DNA of 58,204 bases, filler included, from Sphacelaria rigidula (lineage: Eukaryota): NCBI GenBank assembly GCA_964200075.2. It is 8 parts of 8 records of this genome, joined end to end, with 100 filler letters (N's around TTAATTAATTAA, not from the genome) between each part and the next. Parts side by side here need not be neighbours in the genome. Positions count along the whole stretch, not along the records: positions 14,577 to 21,764 come from CAXNAA020016057.1; 7 more parts are not named here. One strand, written 5' to 3'. Positions 7,189 through 58,204 of this stretch are shown here, in pieces; the first letter of the stretch is position 1; each line of letters begins with the position of its first letter. The translations under genes and the position numbers were made by a program. The notes beneath the pieces are model-generated. The model was not told where the DNA came from and searched no databases. It saw only the letters and a list, made by a program, of their open reading frames with translations.

Positions 7189-7288
7189 NNNNNNNNNNNN
7201 NNNNNNNNNNNNNNNNNNNNNNNNNNNNNNNNTTAATTAATTAANNNNNNNNNNNNNNNNNNNNNNNNNNNNNNNNNNNNNNNNNNNN
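7189..7288. other. Artificial 100-bp contig linker (also at 14477-14576, 21765-21864, 29053-29152, 36341-36440, 43629-43728, 50917-51016)
   Basis: N44-TTAATTAATTAA-N44 (stops in all six frames) recurs every 7288 bp. Confidence 0.98.
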
Positions 7289-13508: not shown

Positions 13509-15296
13509 GTGCGATGCATCTCGTGTGTTCTCATTGCGGGTTGACTGAGTAAAGCTGTCTCGTGCTGTTGGGTGATGGTCAGCGACGGGGGGTGGGGCGG
13601 CGGCGAGGTTGGGGTAGGGGAGGCGCGGGGGAAGTACACTTTTGATGCGCTTGATGGGAGGATATGTTATATCCATTCAGAGAGGCAAGCAGCCCAAACA
13701 TGAATTTCGAGCAGGTTTCGTGTGCGAGTTGCCGTACTCGCATGTTTGCTCAGATTTTCAACAACTTTCGATTCGCGGTGAGGTGAGATTAACTCTACTT
13801 GACCAGGGAGAATTCATGGGACGTTTGATTTGTTTTGTATTGTAATTATCAAGTGCAGTTGGGGACGGTTTTATAACTCAAAGTACAGTATAGTCGGTGC
13901 ATAAATCAGTTTGTTCAGACAACATAGGTGGATCCAGTAGGATGTTTTTGTAACTGGACGCTCGAACAGTAGCAGTGTTACTCCTTTTCGATAATATGGA
14001 GGCTGTGTTTTTGAAGGTTAGGCGTCAAGAAAATCCGCACCTCGCTTGTCATGACACCGAAACTTGGAGGATGTCTTGATTGCTACTACAGCAAGGTGTA
14101 GGAGCCTCAACCGTGGCTGCACAAGGCGCCGATGGCCTGATCTGCATTGAAACGGTGGGTACCATTCTCATCAGATTCTTTGTTTTTTTGCCACCTCCTG
14201 TCTGATGACGAATATAGTATGTGCAATTGCGGTCAGGCTCGTAGACCGCACGGATCCTTTAGGCGTCATCGTCAATCTTCGCCCAGTTAGGGATGAACGC
14301 TCGCAGAAAACCAGAAAATAAACAGCATCTAGGCCCCACCATATATGTGAGGGTCTAGACTGAACAATTTCCGGTCCGAAAAGCTCGACACGTCAAGGTT
14401 AAGCCTATCTCACGCGACCGCTGCGTTCTGCCGTGGACCCTGCCCCACGTACCCGACAAGTGGGCAACATCCCCGTNNNNNNNNNNNNNNNNNNNNNNNN
14501 NNNNNNNNNNNNNNNNNNNNTTAATTAATTAANNNNNNNNNNNNNNNNNNNNNNNNNNNNNNNNNNNNNNNNNNNNGTGCCGCAGTCAAGGAGGTCGTAC
14601 GCAACCCCCCCCCCCCCTCGACCATGCATGGGGAGCATGCATAATCATGGGTACACCCCCCCGCCCCCCCCCACCCCCCCCACTGCCTGGTCCGGCGAGA
14701 ACCTGGTGTGCTCCGTCCCGGCTTCGTAGGGGCGGACCCCCTGTACCAATAGACTGATACTTATGAGGATGTACTTTACACATACGTACTTGTTCCGGTA
14801 TGCGACAATGTATGCAGACAATAGTCCAAAAGATCCGGATGGTCAGACGGAAATTGACGTACTCATGATGGCAAACATCAACCATCCCATCAAGCTGCAC
14901 AGCGGTATAAAATTAAGCCAATGAAATCCGATAATGCCACCTAAGCATTTTGGAATATGAAGGCATCAGCAAGGGAGTCGATGAGTTCTGACGAGCCCTA
15001 TCCCAGTAGGTCTGCGCGGCTCCTACACCCAGAAGCACGTCAATATTAAAGATTATTCCGAGGCTTTTCCACTCAGAGCCCCTACAACTGAGACGACGAC
15101 GACGAAAAGAGAGCGTAGCACAAACCGAAGAGCTGCGAACCTGACCTGCACATCGAGCTTGTAACAGGCGGGGCATTTATTCCCGACTGCGGTACAAATC
15201 GTGCCGTTGTCCTGTACTGCCTCTACATACAACATCGATCGATATATACGAAGAATCGAAGGCTCAATACAGGTTCACGACAACTTCTTCGTCGTT

Positions 15297-15834
15297 ATGA
15301 ACGACCCTCGACTCGACAATGCTGCGGCAACCTTCGATTTCTCCATAGATGACAACTCCTCGATACTTGGGGGTTCAGTTGGGGATGATTCCTTCCTGAA
15401 TTCCCTCGAATCTGGAGGCGCTTTGCTAAGCATGGCCGGACACTGGAGCACAGCCGATGGCAGCATGCAGTGGACAGGCGGCAAAGAAGAACTCTTTGAT
15501 CCTTGGAGCACCGCCGGCCCGGGCGCAGCCGCAGACACCCGTGGCTGCACCCCCGCGTCTGCAGGGGCTTCAGAGCCCATCAAGCCAGACCCGGGTGGGG
15601 CGTGGCTTTCATCTGCGCTCATCGGTGACCTAGAAACCAAAACATCTAGCACTGTTACTAATTCGCAGTCCCTTCCCGCCCCCGCAGCCTCCGCTGAGGC
15701 GCCCAACAACGATGGTGGGAACCTGCGACCGTTTCCAAATCGTTATGCGCGCGATGGTGTTTCTATGAAAGACGAGGTGATTGATACTAAGTGGCAGCAG
15801 CAGCAGCAGCAGCAGCAGTGTCAGCAACCACCAG
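15297..15834 (+). CDS. AUREO: Aureochrome, first coding exon (low-complexity N-terminus with poly-Q)
   Basis: Open frame from ATG 15297 to a cag|gtatgg donor (phase 1), compatible with the 18396 exon; (CAG)8 at 15795-15818. Its link to the aureochrome is inferred from phase and position. Confidence 0.72.
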
Positions 15835-17147
15835 GTATGGCACCGCTATGGTGTAGCGCTGCGTGCATTGTGGGCTCGTCGTGGCGGCGTGTTTGTCCTA
15901 CTGTATGTTTCCCCAGATGGCGCCGGTGGGCGTGAGAGAGAGTTCTGCTCGGTAATTCCTATTTTCGAGACTTGGACATCAACTGCAACCTCGTCTCCTC
16001 TATCCACACCATGTTTTTTATCGGGGAGGCAGGAGGCGGGGGGGTGGGGGGGGTGGGGGGGGATGAGCTACAGAAGAAACAATGTATCACGAACAATTGG
16101 CTTTCCAGATGTTTGTGGGCAAAAACGTCGTTGGCTATCGCCTTAGCGTGTAGGGGTTAGGTTGTGTTGGCATCAGGGCTGCGCGCGAGGGGGGTGCCTT
16201 CTAGGAGATTTGCCAAGTGGCTCGCCCACACGACATCTGGTATTCATTGGTTGTTTCATGTTTCGAAACTAGGTGCCACGTTGTCGCAGATGGCTCAGCA
16301 AACGTGGACCGAGACAAACCGGTCGGTCTCTTTCATGGTACGCGGGCACGTACGTACGCAATCGAGTCATCTGTTGCGAGCCATGCCCTTGCGTTGGATC
16401 TTCCTTGTGCATCCGATGCACTAGGTGCAAATTGAGGAGGTGTATCGTTACTGTCACAGTACAGTCGTGGTCGATAGACGCGACTGCTGACAGTGTTGAT
16501 GTATCATGCACAACAACCTTTCGCAATTTCTCGCAGTCGCAAAACCCGATTGCCCGCCAGCTGGACGTTGCAGTGGTAGTTTTTCGCTCCATCATGTATA
16601 GAACGTACACATACTACTATTATTCTGTACAGTACTACCTCCACATCACCAGGTATAAACTACTCGTGGTCGTCCACAGAACTACAACGAGTACTTGTTT
16701 TGAGACAGCAATACAACAGTCACGCATGGTACAGTTGATGCCGTTAGTTGAGTCGGTCGTCATGGCAGAGCAACAAGCGCTTTCCTCCCAACTCCTCGAG
16801 AAGTGGATACTTTCGGGGCTGCTCTGTGCGATGTATGCCGTATCGCCTGTGTTTTATGTGATTGAGCCTCTTTCACGGATTGTGGACAACTTTGGTCATG
16901 CGCCTAGACCGGGGCTTCCAGAAATCACGAAGTGTTGGTTTTGAAAATAGTGACTGCGAGTTCAGCATCTGAATCACCATCCGGTTGACACAACCAAGCA
17001 CTAATTTACACTTGCTTCGCTCATCGCCCCCCAAAATGGTTTTTAGTGAGCCGCTACAGCCAAGCACCGAATGATACTCGTCGTTCGGTGTCTGTAGAGG
17101 GGTTCGATTCAGTTGTACTCTGCTGCAGGCAACTTACCCGCATTGAC

Positions 17148-17205
17148 ACCCTCTAACGGCCAGGCCAGGTCGTGTGCTGAATCGGCATCACTTTTACTTG
17201 AAAAG
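17148..17205. repeat. Degenerate fragment of the 1125-1338 MITE family in aureochrome intron 1
   Basis: ACCCTCTAACGGCCAGGCCAGGTC...TGAATCGGCATCACTTTTACTTGAAAA matches the reverse strand of the MITE interior (about 1190-1250). Confidence 0.6.
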
Positions 17206-18395
17206 TTACTGCTTGGCCCAGATGATATACCCTGGCGGGGAAATTGTTGACCCACTGATCGTACAATAAGGCCGGTGACAACGCTCATTCTCGGTGAAGT
17301 CACACGATCTGGGTTTTTATCTCGCACCATGCCCAACAGACAGGCAGCGATGTCGTGGGTACACAAAGTTCGACTCCACATTCGATGAGGAAAAGGGGCC
17401 GGTAAACGCTTCTCGCGATAAAATTGTAAGGCAAGCGCCGCAGAAGAAACGTGAAGTTTTCCAAAATATATATATATAATATAAACAGGAGAAATACAAT
17501 AATAATTAATTAATTAATTGGATGGATGGTTGGTCATTTGATTTATTTTTTTGGAGCAAGGGAAAGACAATATAATCACTCCCGTGATGATCTGCCTCAT
17601 GTGTTTCTCCCGGTGATTCGCCCACATACACCGAAAGCTGTAGACTGGCGTCGAAAATAGACGGGATGACAACACACACGTACATCTTCCTATAGTCGAC
17701 ACTGTTTTTTTTCAGACAAATCGTATTCTACGTTTGGGCTTCTCCAACAGTGAATCGGTTTGATTTTTTCAAACCTTCATTTCGTATACTGCAAGTCTGA
17801 GAAATTAATACTGCAACCCAGTATGTCGAAGAGCTGCCCTCTGTGTACGCCGTGGTGTTCACAAGCTTTTCAAGGAACATCAACGTCCGATTTTTTTCGG
17901 ATATCTGTGAAAATTTCGGGACTGGCAAGGTACCTGATGACTCTCGAACGCTTGCGAACCCCACGGCGTATACACAGGGCAGCTGATCGAAGTGCTGCGT
18001 TGCCGTCCGTTTTTTTTTACTTGTCCAGAAGATGAAGCTTCGGATAATATTCAACTTCGGTTGTAGTAAGTATTGATGCATAGTCCGAAAAATTCGAAGT
18101 CTTTTTACATCTTCAGGGAACATAGCCCATAATAATGGGCCTAATTCTCATCACATTCGGGTGATGTCTGTGGATGTATAGTTATATCGTCGGCTAGGTT
18201 GTCGTTCGGAGATAACCACACTCTTCTCCCCGCGTGTTTCAAACAAAAAAATGTCGCTGATGTACTACTGTGCTGATGCGCTGAGATACAGATACTTGGG
18301 ACTTGTACTTTCTTTTCGTTTTTCCCGTCCCTGATCGCCCCGCTCCCCCCCCGCTTCTGTTTTCCGCACCATCGACGACATTCTGTACACCTCAG

Positions 18396-18721
18396 GTCAC
18401 CAGCTACCACCAACAACGGCGCCCGCCCCCACGACCACTGCCGAAGCAGTAGCTGCACTGCCGAACCGAACGACTCGAAGGCAATCATCGCTGATTGCCC
18501 GCGGCCGCACGCCTGCGGCCCCCGTCGCTGCGGCAACCTCGGCCGGCGCGAGATTTCCCGGCGGAGCCGGCGTGTCTACTGTTGAAGCGCCCACTGCACC
18601 TCCGCCCACGGGAGAAGGCGCCGACGACGACGATGATGACGACGATGAGGGCGATGAGATGGGCGAGGGCTCCGCCGGGATGGACAGCGAGCTCAGCGAG
18701 AAACGTCGCCGGAACCGCGAG
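18396..18721 (+). CDS. AUREO: Aureochrome exon 2 (acidic tract and start of the bZIP basic region)
   Basis: cctcag| acceptor and gag|gtgtgt donor. Ends DDDDDDDEGDE...SEKRRRNRE, which joins HAKRSR to form the bZIP N-x7-R motif. Confidence 0.9.
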
Positions 18722-18935
18722 GTGTGTGGTAATTCGCCGAGTAGTTCTAAAGTGGTTCAATACGAGACACGGACCATTGGGATGTTGATTCGATAGACCC
18801 CTCATGAAGAGTTTCTTGGTTCGTGATGGTTCACCGTTCATGGTACCCGGTACCTTATTCTCCTTTTTTTCTTGCAATATCTTGAAACATGTATCCCTCG
18901 CAACAACTTTGTCCTGTCCCGAATTTTGCCTTCAG

Positions 18936-19579
18936 CATGCTAAACGGAGTCGTATGCGGAAGCGTGTCCGCCTGGGGGGGCTAGAGGATATGGTCTTGGA
19001 GCTCCGCCGTGAAAACATTCGTCTGAGGCAAATCGTCAAACAGGGGATCCCCGACCTCGCGGAAGACATCCTCCGCAAGTGTGCCAAGGACAACATCAAC
19101 GCGGACCTCGTGGACAAGGAAGACGTTGTTCAAGGTATGCGCCCAGCCATGACGATAGCTGGATCATCTAGCCATAGCGGCGGCGGTGGTAGCGCAGGGT
19201 CTCGCGCGAGACCAAAGCTGGAGGGAGGGAGCAGCAGCAGTGGTAGCGGTAGTGGTCGACGGCACAAGGATCGTCGGGTACCGTCAGCCCTCAAGCTGAT
19301 GTCTCCGAGCTACCAGTCGGTTAGAGCTTTGTCGGAGAGCCAGGCCAATTTTATTCTGACGAACCCAAATCTGCCAGGATGCCCGATTATATACGCCAGC
19401 CCCGGGTTTCTGGAGCTGACGGGTTATGAGGCAAGCCAGGTTATGGGAAAGAACTGTCGCTTCTTGCAGGGTCCCGGTACGGATCCCGTGGCGGTTTCGA
19501 TTATTCGAAACAACTTGAAGTACGGGAGGGACACGAGCGTGTGCATTCTGAACTACAAGGCCGATGGAAAGCCTTTCTG
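18936..19579 (+). CDS. AUREO: Aureochrome exon 3 (bZIP zipper, linker, most of the LOV domain)
   Basis: ttcag| acceptor. HAKRSRMRKRVRLGGLEDMVLELRRENIRLRQIV (bZIP), then NFILTNPNLPGCPIIYASPGFLELTGY...GKNCRFLQG...ILNYKADGKPFW (LOV; Cys codon 19455-19457). tg|gtgagt donor, phase 2. Confidence 0.96.
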
Positions 19580-19987
19580 GTGAGTAGCAAGCCTTTATCC
19601 TCGCGTTAAATTTTAGAGAAGGCATAAATATCAAGTAGAAATCAGGTTGAGTTTCATGTCTTTTGGGATACCACCATTGCACGTGCTGTGTATATCGTCA
19701 GATGCTTTGCATGTGGACCACCCCATCGCCTCGTCACCTCATAATTTCCTGGAGTATCCCATGACGGTTTAAGCGCATCATGGCACATGTGTGGTACCCT
19801 AAATCCCCTGCCCTGAACAGTTTTTACATACATGGATATGATCTCAAATGCAGGTCGAGTAGAGTATACTCAATTGCGGGGTATTTTGAAAGTCGTACAT
19901 GAAGTACACAAATTGGGGGTAGGGTCTTGGGGATCTCTTTCTAGTTATTTGTTGGGTACGACTCATGACACTCTAACTTAGTTCGAC

Positions 19988-21316
19988 ACACGCGGCCATT
20001 CGGCTCCTGTTTGGAAATCCTCTTGAGGGCATCTGACGCTCCAGTGACTTCTGAGGTCTGAATACCCTGTAGGGGTGTTACATCCCTCTGGAGGGTATCT
20101 GATGCTCCAGTGAGTACTCCTCGAGTTTCCCGAATCAGTCCGATATATACATGACCATATCGCTGCTGCTGTGAAATGCATACCCCAGCAATCTTGTGGT
20201 ACTTTATCACCCGCCGCGTTCAAAGCCGCGTTCTCATATCGAACCATGCAAACCCCGCACAACACTTATTTCCAGCTACCACAACAACCCTGCATGAAAG
20301 AGCACGGGTTGGGCACAGGCGCGGCGGCGGAAGCACGCGGGGTACATGAAGTGCGGGGAATGACCGGCTTACTGCCTACACACTCGAGTCATCATGGACA
20401 GTGCAGCCATGGACAAAGCTGCGCACGCTGTTCAAGTCATTTGCACGTCTCACTGTGAACAGAAAACATAAATGATCTGCGCTGTCTGTACTGTACTTTG
20501 TCCGCTTCCCTTTCACCCCTTACTGACGGCAGTTGTGCGCATGCTGTAAGAACACGCGTCGTGGTCTATACTGCAGTAGCTGATGGTATATAACACCCCC
20601 ATGTACGCAAAGTTACAGGCATCCACTCTGTATAGCCATACGTAGCCCATGTGCCACGCTAGAACTCTGTAGTATATTGCACCTTACGTGTGTTGGCACG
20701 CTATATAGTTCTGTCCTGTATATTGTACAGTCCAGTATATACAGCACCAAACCGCGTGCCTATTCTCGTTGTGACCGTCACATCAAAGTACATGCATGAA
20801 AAAAATTGTTTTGCGGTTTTTGTTCGATTCGTCGACCATGGACTACGAGGTTTTGAGAAGCTGTATCAATACAGTAGCGAGGTAGTTCCCCTCAGTGCAC
20901 CATATACCCACCGACTGAAGCTGTGTAGCGCGGCCGTGTGGAAAAACACTCGTATGTGGGACTTGAATAGCAGAGGCTGCTCGTAAATGTCTTTCCTTTG
21001 CCCGATTACAGGATGAAATGATTGGCAAAAAGATTTTTTTTTCGAGCAGCTTTTGCTTATGCCCGACGTCGGGCATGAAGGATTTATTTCGAACAGCACA
21101 GGTTGTCCGAATTGCGTTTTCCATAGCATGCGCGTGCCTTCAAAAATAATCCAAACGATTTCGATACGGACGCAGAGCTTCGAGCGAGACCCCAACCTTG
21201 AGAACCCTCTGGAGGATTACAAATGCCCAATATCCTCTAAAGGACATTTTAAAAACGGATGCTACGTAGGGTTTCGTTTTACAAAATCCTCTACAGGTAG
21301 CCGAATGGCCGCGTGT
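19988..21316. mobile_element. About 1.3-kb non-autonomous TIR DNA transposon inside aureochrome intron 3
   Basis: Perfect 18-bp IR ACACGCGGCCATTCGGCT (19988-20005 / 21299-21316) extending inward with CCTGT. Subterminal CCTCT-GAGG palindromic repeats near both ends. No transposase recognised. Confidence 0.78.
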
Positions 21317-21528
21317 AGAGCACCCCAAGTACGTGTTTGAAATTATCCCGCAATCGAGTACACTCTACTCGACCTGCCCTTGCAGATTTCCCCCGTCGGA
21401 ATCTGGTCGCGTTCTCCGCTTTCTCCATTGAATACCCCGCATCTACCTTACTACTTTTCCGAAATACCCCGCATCCGCCTGATCCTTTGGTTGTTGTCTC
21501 GGATGTCGGTTATTGTACCACTCCTCAG

Positions 21529-21645
21529 GAATCAACTATCGATCGGTAATCTCCTCGACGCACATGGAAAGGTGGCGAACCACGTTGGAGTGTTGTGCGA
21601 GGTGAAGCAGATGCCGCCCGCGGACTTCCGCCGACTGCTGCACAG
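21529..21645 (+). CDS. AUREO: Aureochrome exon 4 (LOV H-beta/I-beta strands); the last exon appears to lie beyond the contig end
   Basis: ctcctcag|g completes the Trp codon. NQLSIGNLLDAHGKVANHVGVLCEVKQ aligns without gaps to the LOV C-terminal strands; cacag|gtacgc donor. Confidence 0.92.
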
Positions 21646-21894
21646 GTACGCACGATGTTTTCAAGCCACTCTCAGACCGCAGAATTATTTTTCATCATTG
21701 TTGCGCTTGATGTCGGAAGTCCCCTCACCCCCCCCCCCCCCCCCCCCACCACCGCAGGCACACTNNNNNNNNNNNNNNNNNNNNNNNNNNNNNNNNNNNN
21801 NNNNNNNNTTAATTAATTAANNNNNNNNNNNNNNNNNNNNNNNNNNNNNNNNNNNNNNNNNNNNAGATATATCCAATACGGACAGGGGGTGTTA

Positions 21895-22143: not shown

Positions 22144-22148
22144 CATAC

Positions 22149-22597
22149 ATGGGAAACTCCTGGCCCCCTGTCAACCTGTTCGGGCACACATGGGAAACCC
22201 CTGGCCGCCTGTCAACCTGTTCAGAAAGCATGAGAAATCCTGGCTGCATGTCAACCTGTTCGAACACGTATGAGAAACTCCTGGCCTCCTGTCAACCTGT
22301 TCGAAAGCGCATGGGAAATCCTGGCTCCCCTGTCAACCTGTTCGAAAACACATGGGAAATTCTGGCTCCCCTGTCAACCTGTTCGAACACGCATGGGAAA
22401 CTCCTGGCCCCCTGTCAACCTGTTCGAAAACGCATGGGAAATCCTGGCTCCCCTGTCAACCTGTTCGAACACGCATGGGAAACTCCTGGCTCCCCTGTCA
22501 ACCTGTTCGAAAACACATGGGAAATCCTGGATCCATGTCAACCTGTTCGAACACACATGGGAAATCCTGGCTCCCCTGTCAACCTGTTCGAACAAGC
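22149..22597. repeat. Minisatellite, 11 copies of a ~41-bp unit
   Basis: Consensus ATGGGAAA(C)TCCTGGCTCCCCTGTCAACCTGTTCGAA(C/A)AC(A/G)C, head-to-tail with no unique spacers. Confidence 0.95.
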
Positions 22598-25500
22598 ATG
22601 CTCTTGACACCTTGAGCCTTCGTCCTCGCCCATTTTCCTCTCTGCAATCAACTCTTGCTTGTTCGCTGTACGGCTCAAGCATATATATATATGTATATAT
22701 ATATGGTTCATACAACTTTCTCGTTCATCCATTCGATGTCCGGCTTGTATGTTAGCAACTTGCATAGTCTCCACGATAAACACATGGGTCGTTCAAAACA
22801 AGCCAGCAACTTTCATCAGATTATTTTCGGTGTAAATCTCGGCAAAGGAATGTGTGGAACCCATGGACTCTCAAGACCAGAAGAATGTAGCCCTGCCCCG
22901 GGGACAGTCATAGCGCACAGGTAGATGGTCATCTTCATATTGATTGTCAGAGCGTGCACGAGTATAGACGGTCAACGGGAACTGGCGGAGCATCCGTCTG
23001 GTGGCCTCATGCAAACATACAGCATGCAGCTTCACTCATAGCCGCTCAATCCTTGTGGATCCGGGTTGATTATCACTCATGAGTAGCTACATAGAAATTG
23101 GGAGGCGGGCACCAACAACGATTGTTGACGAGCACTGTTGCAGCCTTCATGCAGTCCTGTGACCCACCGCTGCGGGTATTATCAATCAAATAATGGTATA
23201 TTCAACAGTACACCTGGAAACACCCCGTTCTTGTATTGAAAGTCGTGAACTATATAAAAATACACGGTTGGGCAAGGTGTATTCAAAACCGGAGCAGACA
23301 TCACACAGCCTCAAGTTATCCCACAGGGAGAACTGCGTTGAGGTCATATCCATTTTCCATGACAATAAATATTCCGACTATCAATGACCTGCCCCCCCTG
23401 ACCAGGGGGTAGGGTAAATGCCTCATGTTTCGTCCATTCAAACCTCGTAATTTCACGACAAATTGGCTGCCTAGTCTGGTAGCATGCGTAATTCGTGATT
23501 CGATGGAGATTCACTACAGACAGGTCGCGATGCGTTTTCGGAGTTGATAGACACAAACATTCCACACCACTGCGTATGGTCCACTTAACCGCCATCCTTC
23601 TCAGCATCATATTTACCCAACACGCGGCAGCATTGTAAACCTGCAGGATCATGACGGATAACGGTACGCGGCGGCATTGTGAAGCTGCATAACGATCAGC
23701 ATGTCAGGTTTTGCGGTAATAGCTATTTCAAGCGTGGCTGACGTTGGTGAACGAACCGGAACACCAAGACCTGACTGCCAGCCTCGATATACTTGCGTCG
23801 TGAAGCTAATCGAATGCAGCGGTAACAAACCGCAGTGCTATGGAGGAGATAGTGCGGGCAGTTTACAATCGGTTCAGTCATCTTGTACAGCCATCCTGAA
23901 ACAGTATCACAGTAAATAAAAGGGTAGCATGTGGTGAAAACGAAGTGGCGTATACATAAACTAAGCATCAAAATGCAAAAATCAAGGCATACGGCGACAG
24001 CGGCGTCATCTGTGAACGAGTCCAAACCAACGTTACTCCGTCCAGCGGCAACGCCTAGAGCTTGAACTTGAAGCAGTGGGGTTAAAATGATATAAATCTA
24101 ACCTAGTTTGCATGCCCCATGCCGTTTCTGCATGTGTCTGTAACACGCGGATATTCGCGCCTACAGTGAATGCACGTCACTCGCTGCTAAAGTGCCTAAA
24201 TGCATGAAAAATATCGCGCCCCGGCAAGCTTTGGGCACGTAAAGCACTCTACCGTGCGTCTGTGACTTTCGAAAGCGATAGACGTAGCATTCAAGCAATA
24301 CTGTATGTCGCTTACAAACAACCATCCTTTATAGCATCATCACTACCAATCGCAACGGTTGTTTCACGACGGAGTTGCAGGGTTGAACACTTCAACTTCA
24401 AGCCCAGCTGGCGTGTTGTCCCGGTTTTTGTGCCGGAACGGAAGGTGTAACAACAGCTGCCATTTAGTGCGTAACGTACATACAACGGTGTCCATTACAC
24501 GCCCCGTCTATCGCCCACCTCAGCGGTTGCTTGAGCTGTGAATACAACCATGGTTACTCCAGTTTTTTCCACACTATCGCCGCTAAGATGATTGGTAGCA
24601 TTCGAGGTGGTACCGGCATGTCGCATTAGGTTACACAAAGCCGGGTATCAGATCGCATTATACTGCCGCATGCAACACATGATGGTCTGTCCGCACGTCA
24701 ATAATCTCACCGTCATACAAAGACATATATCACAGCAATATAGCAAAAATAAAGCATGGAGTACCCCGCTCTTGAGCTGGTATCCCTTCACGGCGCGGTT
24801 CGCAGGCATAGAACGAGTGAACTCGCGTCACCTCCATGCTACTATAACCCACTGCAGAATAGTATAGGAGAACGGTATCTTGCCTTAGCGTGGAAGCATG
24901 GTTTCGAACTGTTGGCGAGCGCGGTAACCCGAAAGAGGTGGGTCGTGTGCACACAAAACTACTCGTGCGCGTATTTGGGAGATGCAAATGTTACATTTAT
25001 TCGAGCTGGCGGACTTGCACAAGCTAGTTGCATAACCCCAGCACCCTACTACAAAGCCAGCAACACGGTGTCTCCTTCCACAGCGAAAGACTGTGTACAG
25101 CCACATCTATGCGTTGTGTACAGTAAGTCTGCAGCCGCTTCATCACGCGGCGCGGAGACGGTGTGAAACCTGTTTGCAGTAGATTGTGCCAGAACCTCCT
25201 TTTGTCCACCTACGCTGCTTTTAATCGCGTGGGAACTGTACTCCAAAAAGCTGCATTCTCGAACTTCAAACTCAATGGGTAAACGATAATTGCTGCCTAA
25301 TGCCGTGGACACGGAGACTTGGTGGCATAGGATAAACCAGTAGGTAGCGACTTTAAGCGCACATGAGATCGACCACGGACACAGTTGATTTACTTTCACA
25401 TCCCAAGGCAACGCCTCAGTATACTTTTGATCCACGGCCTTGAAAACAGAGCATAGTTTCCGGGCGGGTCTGAATCTAAATCAAATAGCCCGAAATTATA

Positions 25501-28800: not shown

Positions 28801-29186
28801 TAGTCGTTATGAATGGTGTGTTTTCTTTGTACTTCTCAATTTGGAGGATTTTCAATTTTGGGGCCCTCGAAGGTCCGTGTCAACATTGGAATCCCCCGGA
28901 TTATTTTTAAAGGCACAAGTGCAATGGAAATCTGGAATTTGAACAGCCTCTAACTGGAGATTCTACAAAATGAGGTTGATCAGACTAATGCCGAGATAGC
29001 CCCCCCACAAAAAGTGCACCGGAGACCATTCAACGAACCGGCTGCGATCCCANNNNNNNNNNNNNNNNNNNNNNNNNNNNNNNNNNNNNNNNNNNNTTAA
29101 TTAATTAANNNNNNNNNNNNNNNNNNNNNNNNNNNNNNNNNNNNNNNNNNNNCATAATACCCCCCCCCCCTATCGTAGGATGACTC

Positions 29187-36300: not shown

Positions 36301-36440
36301 TTGCCTAAGGAAGGTACGAAAAATGGCCAGAAACGCGAAANNNNNNNNNNNNNNNNNNNNNNNNNNNNNNNNNNNNNNNNNNNNTTAATTAATTAANNNN
36401 NNNNNNNNNNNNNNNNNNNNNNNNNNNNNNNNNNNNNNNN

Positions 36441-39180: not shown

Positions 39181-40689
39181 GCATTCAACAGAACACAGCT
39201 CGAACTTAGACATGGAATAGCGAGAAAAAACAGTAATATTTCTCCATATTACGACGGAAAACATCCAAGATTCTTCCCCCATATTATAACAAAGGTGGGA
39301 GATAAAATAAGACCAAAAGCCAGACATGTAAGTGTTGGCGTGAAGGTTGACCACCTTACATGCACGTCGAAACAGGAAGATACAACATATATATATATAT
39401 AACAATTACAGATAGGATAAGGTCACCCCGATATCATAAATTCACATGAAGGTTGGGTCTCGTAGTGAGATACCCGTAAGACTTTACCACTTTCCATTGG
39501 GGGGGGTGGAAATCTGGTCGGACATTTTCCTGAAATTCCCGACATTGGGTGCGTAGGCGTCAAATAAAGGGAAGGGGTGGATAATGCATGATATAAACGT
39601 CAAGACCTACTGCACTCATGAAACAAACACCTTATCGATGACCGACCACATGGCCTACGAGAAGGAGCACCAAGCAATTCGTACGTAGACTTTTTGAGAT
39701 CTTGAAGGATAGAAGCTCGTACGAAGTGTGGGGGAATCGTCGACCAAGCTTCGACAGCGAAGATCTACTCGGGAGCATTAGTGGACTAGCGATCCATGGT
39801 GAACCGTACACGGCGTGGGATAACATTATTATGTGCGGGACATCCCGATGTGCGAGTAAATCCTTGTGCTATACAAGCCATCCTTGAACCTTACACGGTT
39901 CACTTAACTACCCTGAAGGAAAGTAACCAGAACAGCAGTGGGTCAAGAAGATACAAAATACGATCGTGAGACGCCTGGATGGTTTACCACGCAGATCGTC
40001 TGGTACAAACGTGGGGTACTAGTCTTAAGGGTGATGAACTTGGATCAAGCCACGAGCCCATGTTGGAGGCCTTATTGAGTATCGGTGAGCCAGCAAAAAA
40101 AAACCCAACAAGTACTAGGATTGGTATGTCCCAGTACGTTGGCCTCATCCCACCACAATACTTAAAACGAACAAGCTTGAGATACTCTCGAAGAGGTGGA
40201 GAGAGAGCCGGTGTGGAAGGGTGGATGGAGAAGTAAAGAGTGGACGGGTGAAGTACTAGTAGTGCCGGTACTCGGAGTTCGTAACGACATGACGAGAATA
40301 GAGTTTCAAATGAAATGCAATGAAGTAGGACTATACTGTTTGGCAATAGTAAAAGTAGAAAGAGAGGTAGAACACTTCCGAGTCACGCTAAGACAGAGTG
40401 CGAGCAAGAAGTGGAAAAGGACAGAGACGAGTACGGTGTCGGCATGGGTTAGAAGGGTAGGGTGGAGAGTATATGTAGATAATGAAATAACAAACCTGAG
40501 AGTCAGCGGGTAAACGGAGGGAAGGAGAAACAGGAACACGGAATAGCGCCCGGAAGGGAAAGGGGAGGGAAGAAAGCGGCCCGAAACAAGTATACAAATG
40601 GGTAACTGGAATCAGGAAGGAAAATCGAGCGAGGGAAAATAGCGGTAAACACGACGGAGAGAGAACAATGGATAAAAAGAGAGTGGGGA

Positions 40690-43474
40690 ATGGTTCGAAA
40701 AGGAAGCTGAGAATAGGATCGTGGGGAACGTGTGTGGATTTGCCACAGATGAGCGCAAAAGAATAGAGATAGCCCAGCAAGCCGCGACCTAGATATAGCG
40801 AGAATCCAAGAGCCATGCGAGAAAGAGGGGGCGAGAATAAGATGCAAAGTCAGACAGTACGCATGGATAGGGAAAAGGCCGAAGGCACAGAACCCCAAGA
40901 ACAGGGGAGCCGGAGGAGTAGAATATTCTTAGTCATGGAATGCCTGTGTGACATCATATAAGTGATCACAGACACAAAATTCCAAGGTTGTGTTCTGTAA
41001 GGTACGGGTACGTTCTCTAGGGTATGAGATTCCGTACAGACTTTACAAAACTGTCGGGTACCGGTTTGGAAGTCTCACAGAGTTTACAGAACTGTCGGGT
41101 ACCGATATGAAGTCTTACAGACTTTACGAAACTTCTCGGGTACGGTACGGAAGGCTTACAGGGAACCGGTACCGGCAGTCGGGTAACTCTTTTCGGGTAT
41201 ACCCGCCCCTCGGGTTCGGGTAAATGTTATGTACAGAACTTACAGAACTGTCGGGTACCGGTATGAAAGTGTTACAGACTTTACAGAATTTGTCGGGTAC
41301 GGTATTGGAGGCTTACAGAGAACCGGTAACGGCAATCGGGTAACTCTTTTCGGGTATACCCGCCCTTCAGGTTCGGGTAAATGTATTGTACAGAACTTAC
41401 AGAAGTATCGGGTAAGGGTATGAAAGTCTTACAGAGATTACAGAACTGTCGGGTACCGGTATGAAAGTCTTCCAGAACTGTCACAGAACTGTCGGTTACG
41501 GTACATACCCCGTAGAATACCCCGGGTATACAGAAAACCGTACATTACAGAACACAACCTTGCAAAAGTCGACGAGAGAATATGAATGAGGGTACCAGGA
41601 GAGCGGGAAACCAAACACTGTTTCCGTAGGGAACATCTGTATGCCCCCAGAACCAAAGAGTGGGGTGAAAGATATACAACGGAAGTTCGGAAAGATAGCA
41701 GTAGATGTACATACGTACAAAAGGCAAGGAGGAGCAATGTTAGTGGGAGATTACAATGCAAGGGTTAGAAAAGCAGGGCAGCCGAATAATATCATTGGGT
41801 AATGCGGGGAAGAAAAGAAAAACACGAATGGGGTAGAGACCCTGATTTCCTTGAGCATAACGAGATCAAGACGCTGAACGATAGAGAACAAAAGCCAGAG
41901 GCGCAATGGACATGGACTAGAAATGCAAAGACGAGAGAGAACGTTCTGTTCTTGACTATATAGTAGTGGTAGCGTACGGGAATAGCAAGAAACTGTAAGC
42001 ACATGTATGCGTAGACGACGGGGGAACTACAGAACACTGTGAACAGAATGCCCACAGACAGAGCTAGAAGAAATAATAGGACATTGTAGAAATGGATAGT
42101 GAATAAACTAGAAATATACGAAAAACCACAAGAGCTCCAAGAGGAGATGACCCAAAATGCAGGGAAATTCTCCAAGGTGTTGAGACGCGTAGGTACAGTT
42201 GATACCGACATGGAAAGGGATCGGGCAGGAGCGAGGACTATAGAAGGATGGGAGCAGTTGGTGAAGAATACAGTCAGGAAAGTCATAGGGAAGAAACTAA
42301 TCGTATGCAACGGAGCAGTAAACTGGTGGGATGAGGAAGTAAAAGAGGCTATAAGAGTTAGAAAAGAGGCCCCACGCAAAATATACAAATATTTATATCG
42401 AGTAACACTACGGTGGTTGAGAGGAATGCACTGAAGCTAGGAAGGAGGTGAAGCCAATGGTACAGAAGAAAAAAAGCAACATGGAAAGATGTAGTTAGGC
42501 AAAACTGATTTCGGTGGCGATATGAAACAAATGTGGGTAGGGATAAAAGGGATAATGGGAAACCAGGCAGAAGAGACGGACAAGGGGATAACTACCCAAA
42601 GAGCAAAAAACGGTAAATGGTTGGTTGTTCGAAGGGGAGAAGTGAAGCACTAGCACAGCACTACAGACAACTAGGGGCACCAACAACTAACGAGAGGTCC
42701 GAGGCGAAACTCGAAAAAGAAACCAACGCGTGGGCAGAGGCGAATGTAGAGGCATCCAAACGGGAAGATAGTGGTTCATCATAATTGCAGAGAAATTCAT
42801 AAAAGAGGAAGTAAAGGTATGTGTACCTAAACTCAGAAACAGAAAGCAGCAGGGGCAGACGGAATAGTGAACGAATTTCCAAAGTACAGGGGAGAGGCAG
42901 TGGTTACCATGATGTTTATGCTGTGTAGTTGGATATGGGAAAACGAGTGGAGTAGTAGTAAACCTTTCCAAGAAAGGAGACAAGGCTGGTCCAGCGAATC
43001 ATAGAGGAATCACGCTGTGAAGCACCGCAGGGAAAACATTCTCTAAGGTTCTGAATGATAGAGTGGGACCGATGCTGGAAAAGGATTACATAATCAGCGA
43101 GGGACAAGCAGGTTCAAGACCAAACCGTAGTTGCGTAGACCATGTGTACACATCAGATAAAATTATTCAAGGTAGGAAGGACGCCGGGCTGACAACGTAC
43201 TGTTTCTTTCTAGACGTACAGTAGGCCTATGACACAGTATGGAGGAATGCGTTGTGGTACAAGAAGTAGGGCACTGGCATACGAGAAAAAATGTCGAGAG
43301 TGATGAAGAAGATGCCAAAATGTGCCAAAAGTACTACTTCCTCTGTCCCATAAGTCTGTATCGTTATGGACGTTTAATCGTGTGGGTATCAATGCTCACG
43401 ATCATGCTACAGTTGGGCTCGTTAGAGAGATAACGTGCAGACGAAGCTGACTGAGAAAAAAAAAGAAAAGAAAA
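40690..43474 (+). mobile_element. Decayed LINE (APE endonuclease + reverse transcriptase) with internal deletion and A-rich tail
   Basis: LRIGSW, RGAGGV and MLVGDYNAR (APE); WWDEEVKEAIR; KKGDKAGPANHRGITL*STAGKTFSKVLNDR...EGQAGSRPNRSCVDH...FLDVQ*AYDTVWRNALW (non-LTR RT). Many stops and frameshifts; RT breaks off near 43330. Confidence 0.9.
40983..41562. mobile_element. hAT-type MITE inserted in the LINE endonuclease
   Basis: TIR CAAGGTTGTGTTCTGTAA(G/T)GTACGG; 8-bp TSD CAAAATTC/CAAAAGTC (7/8). Interior made of ACAGAACTGTCGGGTACCGGTATG-type repeats. Confidence 0.88.
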
Positions 43475-43730
43475 GCTGTTTTCAATACTAAAATCATATC
43501 AAAATATACCCCATTTTGGTCCTTTTGGGTCCACTTATACCCCGATGTTGACCGATTTTGGACGTTTTGACGTCGAGTACTCGCGATTACATGCTGAAAA
43601 GTTGTCAGATGAGGGTGTGTAAAGTAACNNNNNNNNNNNNNNNNNNNNNNNNNNNNNNNNNNNNNNNNNNNNTTAATTAATTAANNNNNNNNNNNNNNNN
43701 NNNNNNNNNNNNNNNNNNNNNNNNNNNNTA

Positions 43731-43920
43731 CTGTTCAGATTCGCTTGGCTCCGAGGTTTCGAGATTGGCCGCTGAACAATAATTCGTGTGCAATAATATG
43801 TGCTTGCCAACATGTGGCAGTTTGCCCAATTAGCTGTGGAGATCGCCGTGGACTCTATTGCACACGGATCATTGTTCAGCGGCCACTCTCGAAACACTGG
43901 AGCCAAGCAAATCTGAAAAG
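43731..43920. mobile_element. MITE with ~65-bp TIRs
   Basis: TTCAGATTCGCTTGGCTCC...GGCCGCTGAACAAT...CGTGTGCAATA mirrored at 43856-43920. Flanks TA/TG, possibly a mutated TA TSD. Confidence 0.8.
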
Positions 43921-44126
43921 TGGGCCAGGTTCCTCTCGGTGGGGTAATACAAAGTGTCCAAGACGTGCGTTGGCGATTTTCCCTGTTTGGGAATGAAAAA
44001 GTGGGTCAAAGGGCCCAAAATTGAACAATCCGTTGGCTAGAAATCTGTGTGCCATAACATCCGGCCCAAGATACGCCCTGAAACGCTTCTCTGCACTGCC
44101 GGATGAAAGTTTCGAAATCGGTATAG

Positions 44127-44548
44127 AGGGTAAGGCAGGTACCCGGTACTGGTATTTGGGACATCTCATACCCCGAAGATACCGACCAAACCGGGTATTT
44201 CCGAATGTCATACCTACGATTCCTACGATACCACGGTATTCCGAGATACCAGTACCCACTGTACCTGCCCAATCGGGTATTTTCAAATGCCGTACCTGCG
44301 ATACCTACGATACCACGGTATTTCGAAATACCAGTACCTACCGTACCCGCTCAATCAGGTATTTTCAAAACTCACACCTACGACGACTACGATACCTACG
44401 ATACTACCGTATTTCGAGATTTCAATACGTACCATACCCGCTCGATCAGGTATTTTCAAAACTCATACCCACGATACCCACGCATACCACGGTATAAGAT
44501 ACCCCGGTAAATACCGATGGTACACTCGGTACGGTACCTTACCTACGG
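44127..44548. repeat. Element built of ~78-bp GATACC/GGTAT tandem units
   Basis: About four units of GGTATTTTCAAA...GATACCTACGATACCACGGTATTTCGA; GGTAAGG and CCTTACC near the two ends. Confidence 0.7.
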
Positions 44549-50460: not shown

Positions 50461-50783
50461 GCCCCGGTGGTTCAGTTGGTAACCTCGTAACCTTCTGACG
50501 GTTGAGTAGTGGGGTTCGNNNNNNNNNNAACAGTGGAGAGCGACTATGTCGTGGGTACCCATAATTCGACTTAGCGGTCGACGAGGGAAAGGGACTACTG
50601 AACCCCTCTCACGATAAAAATAGAAAAAGGCAAGCACCGCAGAAGGAAGGTGGGGCATTACAAAAGAACAAAATGCTCCTGTGTTGACCTTCCTCCTGTG
50701 TGACCCCGGCTGATACGCCCACATATACCGAAAGGTGTAGACTTGCGCCCAGAATAAATGGGAAGGCAACACAACACACACAC
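50461..50783 (+). mobile_element. tRNA-derived SINE (Gln-CTG-like head, CA-rich tail)
   Basis: A-box TGGTTCAGTTGG at tRNA position 8 (50468); arm TAACC-TTCTGAC-GGTTG; B-box GGTTCG running into a 10-N gap; ~250-bp body ending CAACACAACACACACAC. Confidence 0.72.
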
Positions 50784-51597
50784 AGCCCCCCAAAGAGCAT
50801 CGAGTGGCGGAGGGATATCGTCTCTTCTTGTCTGTGGAGCTCACCAATGCGAAGATCGATTTCTCTCTGCCTCTCCTTTTGGACAGAACGCGCCTCTGTG
50901 CGCTGAAAAACATGTCNNNNNNNNNNNNNNNNNNNNNNNNNNNNNNNNNNNNNNNNNNNNTTAATTAATTAANNNNNNNNNNNNNNNNNNNNNNNNNNNN
51001 NNNNNNNNNNNNNNNNAGTGAACTCTCTCTGCAATTCTGTGGAGCCTCTATCCTCCCGTTTCGACGTTTCTACCTTTGCCCTTGCTCACGTGTTGATTTC
51101 TTTTTCGAATTCCGGTCCGAGGAAGGGAGGAAGGGGTCGGCCAAAGTGCGACGAATAAATGAAAAGAAGTAAATAATGATCAGAAATAATAGCAATAATA
51201 ATAGAGTAGATTGGTTCGATTGAGTAATTGGAGTGATGCCACGTTGGGGGTGCACTTTGTCAGCCAAAAAGGTTCTCGGGGCTGATCTGGGTGTTGCAGG
51301 GGCCATTTTGTAAATCTGGGAGTCCGGTCCCCAAAGGGTTAGGGCTGCACAGTAAACCCCAGATATTTGTGCCCCTACAAGAAAAAGAGCGCTCGAACCA
51401 AAAAGTGCACCCCTAACTTGGCATTTCTCATTGGCTGTCGCACATTAGCTCCTTTCTTCTTTTCTTTCTGTGGTTGTTGCTTCTATATTTTTATGTTCTT
51501 TTGCTTTCTTACTCTTCTCTTTTTGTCGCTCCTAACCACGGGCTGGATTGTTGCAGTTAGCTATTGTGAGACGATGAATCAATCAATCAATTGGCTG

Positions 51598-56007: not shown

Positions 56008-58204
56008 TCATAAAGAACGTATGTAACTCGTAAACAGGCTGATCGAGAGAGGCTTCGTCGAAATATCTGCATGCTGCCATCTTGAGCCTACATGTACAAC
56101 CCTGACTTTTCCCGTCCCCACCAGCTCTCGAATGAAGTGATATCTCACGCCTATGTGCTTACTCCTTTCGGAACTAAGAGAATTCCCGGCCAGAGCGTTT
56201 GCTCCCTCGTTGTCCTCGTACAAAAGGATACCTTGGTCCTCCCCGCACCCCGACACAGTCTGCAGTCGCAGGAACGTCAGCACTGCCTTCACAAACAATC
56301 CCTACCTTGCCCCGTCGGCCATTGCAACATACTCTCTGCCTCCGTAGTTTACAGAGTTACGCACCGACACTACCACACCACCGTACATCAAGGCTACCCC
56401 TGATACCGAACGCCTATCCGTTTCCTTCTTAGCGTTATCTTCATCGCAGTAGACTGAGAGCCTATCATGACCTTTCTTGAACGTAAGTCCAAACGCCTTT
56501 GTCTCATTGAGATACTTCGAAACTTTCATCACAGCTTCCCAGTGTCTCTCGCATGGGTCATGCGATTGGCGAGCAAGCGCTCGTACCGAATTCGCGATGT
56601 CGGGTCTGGTGACTGTTGCCAGCCACATCAACCCCCCCACTGCGTTACAGCATGGGCGATTCACCTTTTTGTCTTCGCCCGTTGTCGGCCCCAACGTTAC
56701 AGAAACAGAGGCAGGGATTTCCGAGTACCCCCTCGCCTCAAAACGCTCAAGGGGCGTGTCACTGAACGTGGTTTGCGTCACAGACAGCGTGCCTCTATCC
56801 CAGTCTCTGTCCACTGCGCACCCCATGTACCAGGTGACCTCTCCGAGATTGTTCGTGGGAAACTTTGTGTTAAGGATTTGGCCCACCTTTCCTACGTATT
56901 CCTCAGGACCACTGATAAGGATGTCGTCCACATGGAAAACTGAAATCACACGTACGTCTCCTGCATTCTCCATCTTGAAAACACATGGGTGAGCCTCACA
57001 CTGCACCATCCCGACATCCTCCAGCAAATTTTGGCACAAAAGACGAGACCACTGCCTGTCCGCTTGCTTGAACCCGTAAATAGATTTTTCAGGCTTTACG
57101 GTCACGTCCGTTAGAACGGAGCATCCTTCAGGCAACCTCATGTACACTGCAGTATCCATTTCTGCTTGAAAAAAAGCCCGTGTCATATCAAAATGGTACA
57201 GCGGCCGCTCTTCCTGGACTGCCACTGCAATGACCAGTTTGATGGAGGTCATGGAGGGCGTTGCCGCGAAAGTCTCGAAATAGTCGACTGCAAAACGTTA
57301 TCCGAAACTTCGCGCTACCAACCTTGCTTTTGCCTTCGTTACAGTACCATCTGCGTCGGTCTTCCAACTAAAAACCCACTTCGCTGAAATCACGTTTGCT
57401 GCTTCCCGTACAGAGCCAGTCGAAAATGTTCCAGCCTTTTCGTGACCTCCTAGCTTGGCCTGCATCGCGCCTAACCATGCCTCTAGAAATTCTGATTTGG
57501 CAATGTCATCCATACTGGTTGGTGCCGCCTCTATTTCGCTGAAGTGTAGACTAACCGGTGAACGCAAACCGAATTCAGGCTGCCCTACCCTATTTTCCTC
57601 ATCAACAAAACAAAAAAGAAGTCGTTTTCAGCTAACTCGTGTTGAGTCGAAGCCATCGCGTCTTGTCCGGCCAGCTGTCCTGCTGCCGCGGTGATCATCT
57701 CCATGGTTAAGCATTTATCCTCCGCCATTCCCGCCAGCGCCATCTCCGCTTACTTTTTGTTCTCCTCCGCTCCGCTAGCCACCAGCGTTTCATCTCGTGC
57801 GTGTGCCGACCCCATGACCTCGCGCGTTTGGCTCCTCGCACGCCCCGCCCTTGGTGTTGGTAACCGGTCAGCCCATGCAAGACGGCGTTGCTCGGTCCTC
57901 GGGAGTTGAGAAGCGTCGCTGCTCCCCCCGCCATCTTGCGAGGGAACCGTGAAAGAGGGTGACAGTGCGGGCGACGAGGCAGTGTCCGATGCCGATGTGA
58001 GCGTCGGCGTAGGTGTCGGCGTCGGCGTAGGTGTCGGCGTCGGCGTAGGTGTCGGCGTCGGCGTAGGTGTCGGCGTCTGCGCTGGTGTCTGCGTCGGCGT
58101 AGGTATCGGCGTCTGCGCTGATGTTGACGTTGATGATGATGATGATGATGATGATTCCGGCTCAACCTCACCCCCTCCGTTGACAAAATCTGAAACGGGG
58201 ATCT
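56008..58204 (-). mobile_element. Decayed Ty1/Copia retrotransposon (INT-RT linker, RT, RNase H)
   Basis: NVISAKWVFSWK...AKARLVAR; HFDMTRAF; KSIYGFKQA; HVDDILI; TRPDIA; DRRSVSG; YEDNEGA; RSKHIGVRYHFIRE; QHADISTKPL. Frameshifted. Confidence 0.95.
58003..58118. repeat. 18-bp tandem repeat (Pro-Thr-coding on the minus strand) in the Copia linker
   Basis: GTCGGCGTAGGTGTCGGC repeated about six times, with variants. Confidence 0.85.

Follow-up and report, generated by a model that had tools for sequence, protein, structure and literature searches.

Can an aureochrome still pass on a light signal when its LOV domain lacks the glutamine (Gln) that has long been regarded as the relay of that signal? 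The question is raised by a gene in a 58,204-base stretch of the brown alga Sphacelaria rigidula (assembly GCA_964200075.2; eight genomic parts joined end to end, hereafter the window), in which leucine (Leu) is encoded at the Gln site. A sequence-only reading of this DNA had taken the gene for an aureochrome with a natural Gln-to-Leu substitution, and had proposed a photochemically distinct paralogue, such as a slow-cycling light integrator or a weak-output heterodimer partner. Here we place the gene in its family, follow the Gln site across that family and weigh what the change may mean for light sensing.

The gene is identified as an orthologue of Ectocarpus aureochrome 5 (AUREO5), a bZIP-LOV transcription factor. 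A search with the LOV exon retrieved 24 close relatives whose identity ranges from 59-100%, followed by a drop to 44%, and one cluster at 90% contains 'aureochrome 5 [Ectocarpus siliculosus]' (CBJ30584.1). Pfam recognizes bZIP_2 and PAS_9 on a single exon (residues 2-36 and 145-214 of the translation of 18936-19577), in the order found in the full-length orthologue P0124, which upholds the aureochrome identity first proposed. The layout is that of an aureochrome: one polypeptide in which the bZIP precedes the only LOV domain. The aureochrome LOV signature GXNCRFLQG is present as GKNCRFLQG, including the adduct-forming Cys. The basic region (NREHAKRSR) has the His described as peculiar to aureochrome bZIPs in the available part of a preprint (10.1101/2022.05.19.492614). 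The host is a photosynthetic stramenopile (Phaeophyceae), and the exons are identical to P0141 from the same species. Further defining traits of the family are FMN binding and, in blue light, stronger dimerization and TGACGT binding. Further searches used the 44-residue in-frame stretch 21518-21649 (five candidates) and the Saccharina orthologue (12 AUREO5 rows among 17 matches, query included); the exon-bearing orthologue proteins were drawn from annotated genomes and transcriptome-derived records. The deposited model of E. siliculosus 'aureochrome 5' (310 residues) has no bZIP, while its E. fasciculatus counterpart (754 residues) has one.

The Gln site lies on a short exon whose first base, 21529, is the third base of a Trp codon (TG|G) opened at 19578-19579. 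From 21530 onward the plus strand reads NQLSIGNLLDAHGKVANHVGVLCEVKQMPPADFRRLLH, which contains the motif NHVGVLCEV. A stop appears when 21529-21645 is read in frame 1 from 21529, so the exon reading is valid only with the split codon. The splice 19579/21529 proposed earlier joins the two halves of that codon in the right phase across a GT-AG intron. The codon at the LOV active-site Gln position is TTG (21593-21595), two bases from CAG as had been noted, and the Leu is genuine rather than a sequencing error. Two further changes lie on the same exon, namely H-beta Phe to Leu (CTA, 21536-21538) and I-beta Phe/Tyr to His (CAC, 21581-21583). GKNCRFLQG, the LNY Asn and the FWN Asn (codon at 21530-21532), all described as intact from the sequence alone, were located by coordinates in the window.

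Searches with related proteins point to the same exon. With the Ishige orthologue P0122, tblastn matched 21530-21646 at 90% identity (E = 5e-17), the window's only match to that part of the protein, and the exon is judged no chance match. An alternative exon encoding GVQ would have undone the claim. No second H-beta/I-beta-like exon with Gln was found in the window by tblastn with four orthologues or by a six-frame motif scan; only 21530-21646 was matched. The junction PFW|NQLSIG is also present in transcript-derived or annotated orthologues from other species. Gene identity and splice structure are both shown here.

The loss of Gln extends well beyond Sphacelaria. By species, AUREO5 carries Leu in eight and Met in seven, and none of the 15 named species retains Gln. 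Leu is found in the window, three Sargassum species, Ishige okamurae (P0122), Saccharina japonica, Laminaria digitata, Dictyopteris undulata and one ENA fragment; Met is found in two Ectocarpus species, Nemacystus, Cladosiphon, Hapterophycus, Petalonia, Scytosiphon and a second Ishige copy (P0148). By rows, the 16 AUREO5 sequences divide evenly (Leu 8, Met 8), and the other aureochrome LOV rows have Gln in 55/55, a set that leaves out P0081 (misaligned, branch 7.65) and P0115 (intron read-through). Four candidate non-Gln cases, P0099, P0115, P0096 and P0151, were discarded because each departs from family sequence right after NYV/NFV, as genomic open reading frames running into an intron would. 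The earlier suggestion that Leu marks a conserved clade is borne out, AUREO5 having Leu or Met and never Gln in the 15 species; that the Ectocarpales have Met had been missed. Clade-wide, the loss of Gln is evidently fixed in AUREO5.

Phylogeny supports a single AUREO5 lineage. In a tree of 71 rows from which the Gln-site column (column 127) had been removed, the 16 AUREO5 rows, P0137 and the window included, form one clade with a Shimodaira-Hasegawa-like approximate likelihood ratio (SH-aLRT) support of 100, and the Gln-site residue requires three changes on this tree. Trees with and without the Gln-site column, P0081 and P0115 gave the same result. The tree rests on a short alignment of 130 columns and on the 'quick' method, so that only the AUREO5 branch itself is reliable. 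In the first tree, which still held the Gln-site column, the AUREO5 stem had a length of 1.27 changes per column, no end branch exceeded 0.33, and the seven Ectocarpales Met rows formed one starred clade. Ishige is placed under Ectocarpales in the NCBI taxonomy, yet the LOV tree puts it outside this Met clade. Gln would have given way to Leu at an early point of the AUREO5 lineage, with Met arising later in the Ectocarpales and in the second Ishige copy.

The Gln site is one element of a wider signature. Nine of the 130 LOV columns combine fixation of at least 95% across the 55 other rows with replacement in all 16 AUREO5 rows: two in A'alpha, three around A-beta (Ser to Thr, Asp to Asn, Asn to Cys), two in H-beta (Phe to Leu, Phe to Ser) and two in I-beta (Val to Ala, Gln to Leu/Met). 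Moreover, the Phe/Tyr four residues ahead of the Gln site is His in 15/16 AUREO5 rows. Against this background the flavin-holding set is retained. All 35 AUREO5 rows, from brown algae of five NCBI orders, retain the Cys, Arg and Gln of NCRFLQ along with the second Arg and the LNY Asn; of the 18 rows extending as far as the FWN Asn, 17 have it, the exception being a read-through into the intron. The co-substitutions and the retention of the flavin set are likewise shown. We regard this signature, fixed at nine positions and available in nature with either Leu or Met, as more interesting than the Gln change alone.

Residue equivalences rest on spacing and on gapless alignments to PtAUREO1a. The I-beta Leu lies 63 residues after the Cys, as Q513 does after C450 in AsLOV2, where the canonical I-beta Gln stands; of the canonical active-site residues, the flavin-coordinating Asn, Arg and Gln are present. 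The H-beta Leu precedes the I-beta Leu by 19 residues, the spacing of F298/Q317 in Vaucheria AUREO1 and of F494/Q513 in AsLOV2. Positions corresponding to AsLOV2 N414 and D515, which figure in a model of Gln-free relay, are Asn in 16/16 and Glu in 16/16 AUREO5 rows when mapped by spacing from the Cys. The site 34 residues ahead of the Cys, equivalent to V28 of YF1, is Ile in the window and Ile in 11 and Val in 5 AUREO5 rows; in other aureochromes it is Val 29, Thr 15, Ala 11 and Ile 0. A strict and general coupling between loss of the Gln and loss of the H-beta Phe was considered and rejected: Cys-bearing LOV domains with Gln have Phe 151, Leu 95, Val 10 and Ile 1 at the H-beta site. The H-beta Phe occurs in 1/40 Leu/Met LOV domains, the rows not being independent.

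Structural comparison agrees with these assignments. The Laminaria orthologue aligns to the PtAUREO1a LOV structures 5a8b and 5dkk without gaps (E = 2e-41), with Leu opposite the conserved Gln. An AlphaFold model of the Sargassum orthologue, built from a 48-row alignment, reaches a pLDDT (predicted local distance difference test) of 86-96 per ten-residue block over the LOV core, places a helix at 195-204 directly after I-beta and leaves the remainder disordered, for a mean pLDDT of 65.9. Its best Foldseek matches are the aureochrome LOV structures 5a8b, 6t74, 6i20 and 5dkk.

A broader survey places AUREO5 among related proteins. The Laminaria orthologue served as HMMER query against 1.84 billion representatives, and a profile was then used to read out 405 LOV domains. 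Among proteins with a bZIP motif, 98 domains have Gln, 11 Leu (10 AUREO5 and P0215), 10 Met (nine AUREO5 and one read-through), one Tyr (a read-through) and one Thr (P0265, on a long branch). P0215, a bZIP-LOV protein reading GLL, and its relative P0278, reading GVL, fall in a different starred group from AUREO5, which indicates that Gln gave way to Leu at least twice in aureochrome-like proteins. P0281 combines an AUREO5-like tail with Cys at the Gln site and ECTF for NCRF; its branch is very long and its placement unsafe. Very large proteins were also noticed outside the window, P0153 (3055 residues) and P0154 (4197 residues) along with P0155-P0161, P0170 and P0173, in which LOV-like repeats number up to 10 per protein. 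The Cys is kept in many of these repeats, with the Gln site occupied by Leu, Met or His.

Coordinates of the gene and of other features are collected in Table 1.

Table 1. Features of the window, in window coordinates.
Feature	Position	Strand	Remarks
First coding exon of AUREO5, N-terminal, poorly conserved (probable)	15297..15935	+	Starts at the first Met of open frame 15165-15935; 3' end provisional
Exon: acidic stretch and first half of bZIP basic region (...SEKRRRNRE)	18397..18721	+	5' boundary approximate
Intron splitting the bZIP basic region	18722..18935	+	214 bases; GTGTGT...CTTCAG
Exon: rest of bZIP, linker, A'alpha helix, LOV core from A-beta to start of H-beta (...PFW)	18936..19579	+	GKNCRFLQG; Cys codon TGT at 19455-19457; LNY Asn at 19551-19553
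Intron between Trp codon bases TG and G	19580..21528	+	1949 bases; GTGAGT...CCTCAG
Exon of the finding: H-beta, I-beta, start of short post-I-beta helix	21529..21645	+	tblastn 82-90% identity to four orthologues; followed by donor GTACGC
Linker closing the gene-bearing 7188-base piece	21765..21864	.	44 N, TTAATTAATTAA, 44 N
Linkers	7189-7288, 14477-14576, 21765-21864, 29053-29152, 36341-36440, 43629-43728, 50917-51016		Identical, 100 bases each
Separate 10-N run	50519-50528
Long poly-C runs	14607-14618, 21725-21749		Near the ends of the gene-bearing piece
Tandem array	22148-22600		41-base unit, 11.1 copies, 86% matches; also scored with a 123-base period
Tandem arrays	41035-41503, 44192-44495		Periods 41, 82-91 and 157 bases
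Region of strong strand asymmetry	40001-44500		GC skew 0.24-0.27, AT skew 0.24-0.27; low G+C, 0.42-0.47
Open frame with Ty1/copia-type reverse transcriptase domain; probably a retrotransposon fragment	56302-57297	-	Pfam RVT_2, E = 3e-25

Upstream exons are supported to different degrees. With orthologues P0122, P0124 and P0125, tblastn aligned 15306-15743 at 29-33% identity (E = 3e-6 to 1e-8), and Pfam found no family on exon 1 or on the short exons of AUREO5. The second exon is preceded by a pyrimidine tract and cag (about 18394-18396), is followed by the donor GTGTGT and is identical to P0141 over the stretch. The bZIP read across the first tabulated intron, RRRNRE|HAKRSR, agrees with all orthologues. 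The main exon, with bZIP_2 (E = 3e-6) and PAS_9 (E = 7e-11), is 100% identical to P0002 and P0141. Among the 24 AUREO5 relatives retrieved, 18 end at PFW, as expected where TGG TGA stands in frame, and the intron position therefore appears shared; P0005 continues beyond PFW. The public partial model of the Sphacelaria gene is one exon short and should be extended. Orthologue tails (P0122, P0124, P0136 and others) run from the post-I-beta motif MPPxxF[RH]RLLHR through VPLPESLL and an acidic Ser-rich stretch to DRL[RH]RTRAAA near the C-terminus. The C-terminal tail exon or exons were absent from every frame of the window in tblastn with orthologues and a six-frame motif scan.

The window itself is a chain of 7188-base pieces, and pieces side by side may lie apart in the genome. 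The linkers come at intervals of 7288 bases and carry stops in each of the six frames. All AUREO5 exons found lie on one strand of the piece 14577-21764, which ends 119 bases past the exon of the finding. The tandem array just past the closing linker gives rise to long repetitive open frames on both strands. RVT_2 was the sole Pfam match among 16 other long open reading frames tested in the window.

What would such a domain do in light? Much of the guidance comes from Dietler et al. 2022 (PMC9098866), whose accessible portion underlies the statements drawn from it here. Gln-to-Leu variants of YF1, NmPAL and AsLOV2 bound flavin, formed the adduct and kept signalling; their spectra were blue-shifted, their output amplitude was about half and their recovery slowed 10-fold, 1.2-fold and 22-fold, respectively. 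In YF1 almost any residue at the Gln site was tolerated with the light response retained, and the V28 Val-to-Ile exchange slowed recovery about 10-fold. A natural Mesorhizobium receptor with Met at the site was regulated by blue light. Natural LOV receptors without the Gln were put at about 350, Leu or Ile being the usual substitute, and in the model offered for them water relays the signal to the Asn at the start of A-beta. According to PMC8184817, which summarizes work by Kobayashi et al. 2020, all F298 and Q317 mutants of Vaucheria AUREO1 still showed a light-driven rise in dimer fraction and DNA affinity. This published dispensability of the Gln lowers the surprise of the AUREO5 change.

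With its flavin-site residues intact, the AUREO5 LOV domain is probably still a flavin-binding photoreceptor. Its flavin binding, photocycle, kinetics and output are predicted here by extension from other proteins. The domain would bind flavin mononucleotide (FMN) and form the Cys-flavin adduct under blue light. The signal would then reach the beta-sheet and flanking helices without Gln, through water or through changes in packing, as put forward for Gln-free LOV receptors. Relative to Gln-containing aureochromes, a blue-shifted spectrum, slower dark recovery and smaller output amplitude would be expected, and slower recovery is proposed to give higher sensitivity at steady state. Taken together, FMN binding, adduct formation, Gln-independent signalling and a probably slow recovery seem to us a rather likely description of this domain. 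The photochemically distinct paralogue of the sequence-only reading, whether slow integrator or weak-output partner, would agree with the published Gln-to-Leu data.

A bolder version is put forward only tentatively. Here AUREO5 would be an ancient, separate photochemical class of aureochrome with a Gln-independent relay. Its pocket would have been remodelled (Gln to Leu/Met, Phe-Phe to Leu-Ser, Phe/Tyr to His, Asn to Cys) and its J-alpha exchanged for the short MPPxxF[RH]RLLHR helix and a conserved tail, an arrangement held across the sampled brown algae. Such a protein may act as a slowly recovering, highly light-sensitive integrator, for example of dim light or day length.

Several points weigh against a functional, slowly cycling photoreceptor. 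The literature searched yielded no expression or measurement of an AUREO5 protein, and the AlphaFold model holds no ligand and is thus silent on flavin binding. The pocket is changed at several sites (H-beta Phe to Leu and Phe to Ser, I-beta Phe/Tyr to His, pre-B-beta Asn to Cys) and the Phe of NCRFLQ varies in 7/35 AUREO5 rows, so flavin binding could be weakened. The effect of Gln-to-Leu on recovery spans 1.2-fold to 22-fold between proteins, and slow cycling is therefore not assured. At the level of the gene, the public model of this species (P0141 = CAM9834867.1, 300 residues, corresponding to 18440-19579) ends at PFW and hence lacks the exon 21529-21645 and the Gln-site residue with it. 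Finally, with the tail exon nowhere in the window, the gene is 3'-incomplete there.

The replacement of Gln may instead have been near-neutral, with Leu and Met arising by drift, AUREO5 behaving much as other aureochromes do, and any special role belonging to other parts of the protein: the long N-terminus, its linker or its tail. The wide replaceability of the YF1 Gln and the small effect of NmPAL Q347L fit this idea (PMC9098866), as do the interchange of Leu and Met at least twice within AUREO5 and the Leu of the unrelated bZIP-LOV lineage (P0215, P0278). However, the invariance of Gln in the 55 other aureochrome rows indicates that the site is not free to drift in the family. Nor has Gln been regained in the AUREO5 of any of the 15 species. 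In the standard genetic code a return from Leu to Gln takes one base change from CTG or CTA and two from TTG, the window codon. The change is also coupled to fixed changes at neighbouring pocket positions, and the long stem with its short crown suggests a shift followed by constraint. Near-neutrality is, in our judgement, unlikely.

The main rival holds that the AUREO5 LOV domain no longer senses light, through loss of flavin or of the photocycle, and that the protein acts as a bZIP partner or regulator irrespective of light, a role proposed for class 2 aureochromes. A precedent that tells against a light-sensing AUREO5 is PtAUREO2, reported in the accessible part of PMC4937327 to be unable to bind flavin on account of a Met in its cavity. 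The Ectocarpales likewise have Met at the Gln site, several of the nine clade-specific replacements line the pocket, the NCRFLQ Phe is variable, and the relative P0281 pairs an AUREO5-like tail with the ECTF and Cys noted above. Yet the adduct Cys and the flavin-coordinating Arg, Gln, Arg and Asn persist in every one of the 35 rows across five orders, a retention hard to explain without flavin. Moreover, a natural Met-bearing LOV protein works as a blue-light receptor and Gln-to-Leu variants of three receptors bind flavin (PMC9098866). A light-blind AUREO5 appears rather improbable on this balance. An assembly or annotation artefact, a pseudo-exon or a piece of another gene could be suspected from the stitched window, the shorter public model and the missing C-terminal exon, but is highly improbable given that the exon shares piece and strand with the others, has canonical splice sites in the right phase, matches the corresponding part of four orthologues at 82-90% identity and shows the same junction as annotated or transcript-derived proteins of other species.

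A light-sensing, Gln-free AUREO5 would have consequences beyond this gene. Work of 2020-2022 indicates that the Gln is dispensable, yet the one natural Gln-free receptor tested, according to the accessible part of PMC9098866, was a bacterial enzyme. AUREO5 would supply a eukaryotic transcription-factor case, Gln-free in all 15 brown-algal species checked. Its Leu and Met forms, together with the fixed changes at the H-beta Phe partner, make ready material, natural proteins as well as revertants, for tracing the path of the signal away from the flavin when Gln is absent. If AUREO5 is a separate class, Gln-independent LOV signalling could be studied in a eukaryote in which nature supplies both Leu and Met variants. 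AUREO5 could also show whether brown algae, farmed kelps included, keep a slow, sensitive blue-light channel beside their ordinary aureochromes. Natural Gln-free LOV receptors are a kind already known, and AUREO5 sequences have been public for years. No paper noting the Gln-site feature in AUREO5 was found, passages on AUREO5/aureochrome5 included, though earlier LOV and aureochrome surveys and the supplement of PMC9098866 may already record it.

Comparison with known systems begins with the nearest relatives. Ectocarpus siliculosus aureochrome 5 (CBJ30584.1 / D7FQI9; P0137) and orthologues such as Saccharina japonica A0A126X1N8, P0124, share the LOV clade of the window gene, its bZIP-linker-LOV layout, the signatures FWNQLSIG and NHVGV[L/M]CEV, and, it appears, the intron after PFW. 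The Ectocarpus protein differs in having Met where the window has Leu, and in a deposited model that lacks the bZIP; the orthologues carry the C-terminal tail VPLPESLL...DRLRRTR, whereas the window lacks the tail exon. Class 1 aureochrome LOV domains (PtAUREO1a, 5a8b/5dkk; VfAUREO1, 3ue6; OdAUREO1a, 6i20) align to AUREO5 without gaps at about 50% identity and share the fold with A'alpha, the adduct Cys and the flavin-holding residues. In contrast, class 1 proteins have I-beta Gln, H-beta Phe-Phe and Phe/Tyr four residues before the Gln, where AUREO5 has Leu/Met, Leu-Ser and His, and their J-alpha sequence is replaced after I-beta by MPPxxF[RH]RLLHR.

PtAUREO2, the reportedly flavin-free class 2 protein, resembles AUREO5 as an aureochrome paralogue with an altered flavin pocket and offers a precedent for a non-sensory LOV domain (PMC4937327, accessible part). 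There a single Met is reported to block the cavity, whereas the flavin-coordinating set is complete in AUREO5; at the pocket positions counted, Met is absent from the window, and the Ectocarpales AUREO5 have Met at the Gln site. None of the tree rows carried a class 2 label. The Vaucheria AUREO1 'Photozipper' mutants at F298 and Q317 concern the same two positions, 19 apart, as the AUREO5 Leu (column 108) and Leu/Met (column 127). The mutants were made in the laboratory, one substitution each, in a protein of class 1, while AUREO5 has both changes and seven more, fixed over evolution (PMC8184817, accessible part). By sequence AUREO5 falls within the LOV-deltaQ receptors as defined in the accessible part of Dietler et al. 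2022, with conserved LOV residues and another residue at the Gln site. Like these receptors and the laboratory variants AsLOV2 Q513L, YF1 Q123L and NmPAL Q347L, it keeps the LOV signature and replaces Gln by Leu, the commonest natural substitute, or by Met, as in Mesorhizobium (PMC9098866). The natural LOV-deltaQ receptor tested there is a bacterial diguanylate cyclase, whereas AUREO5 is a eukaryotic transcription factor with its sensor C-terminal to its effector.

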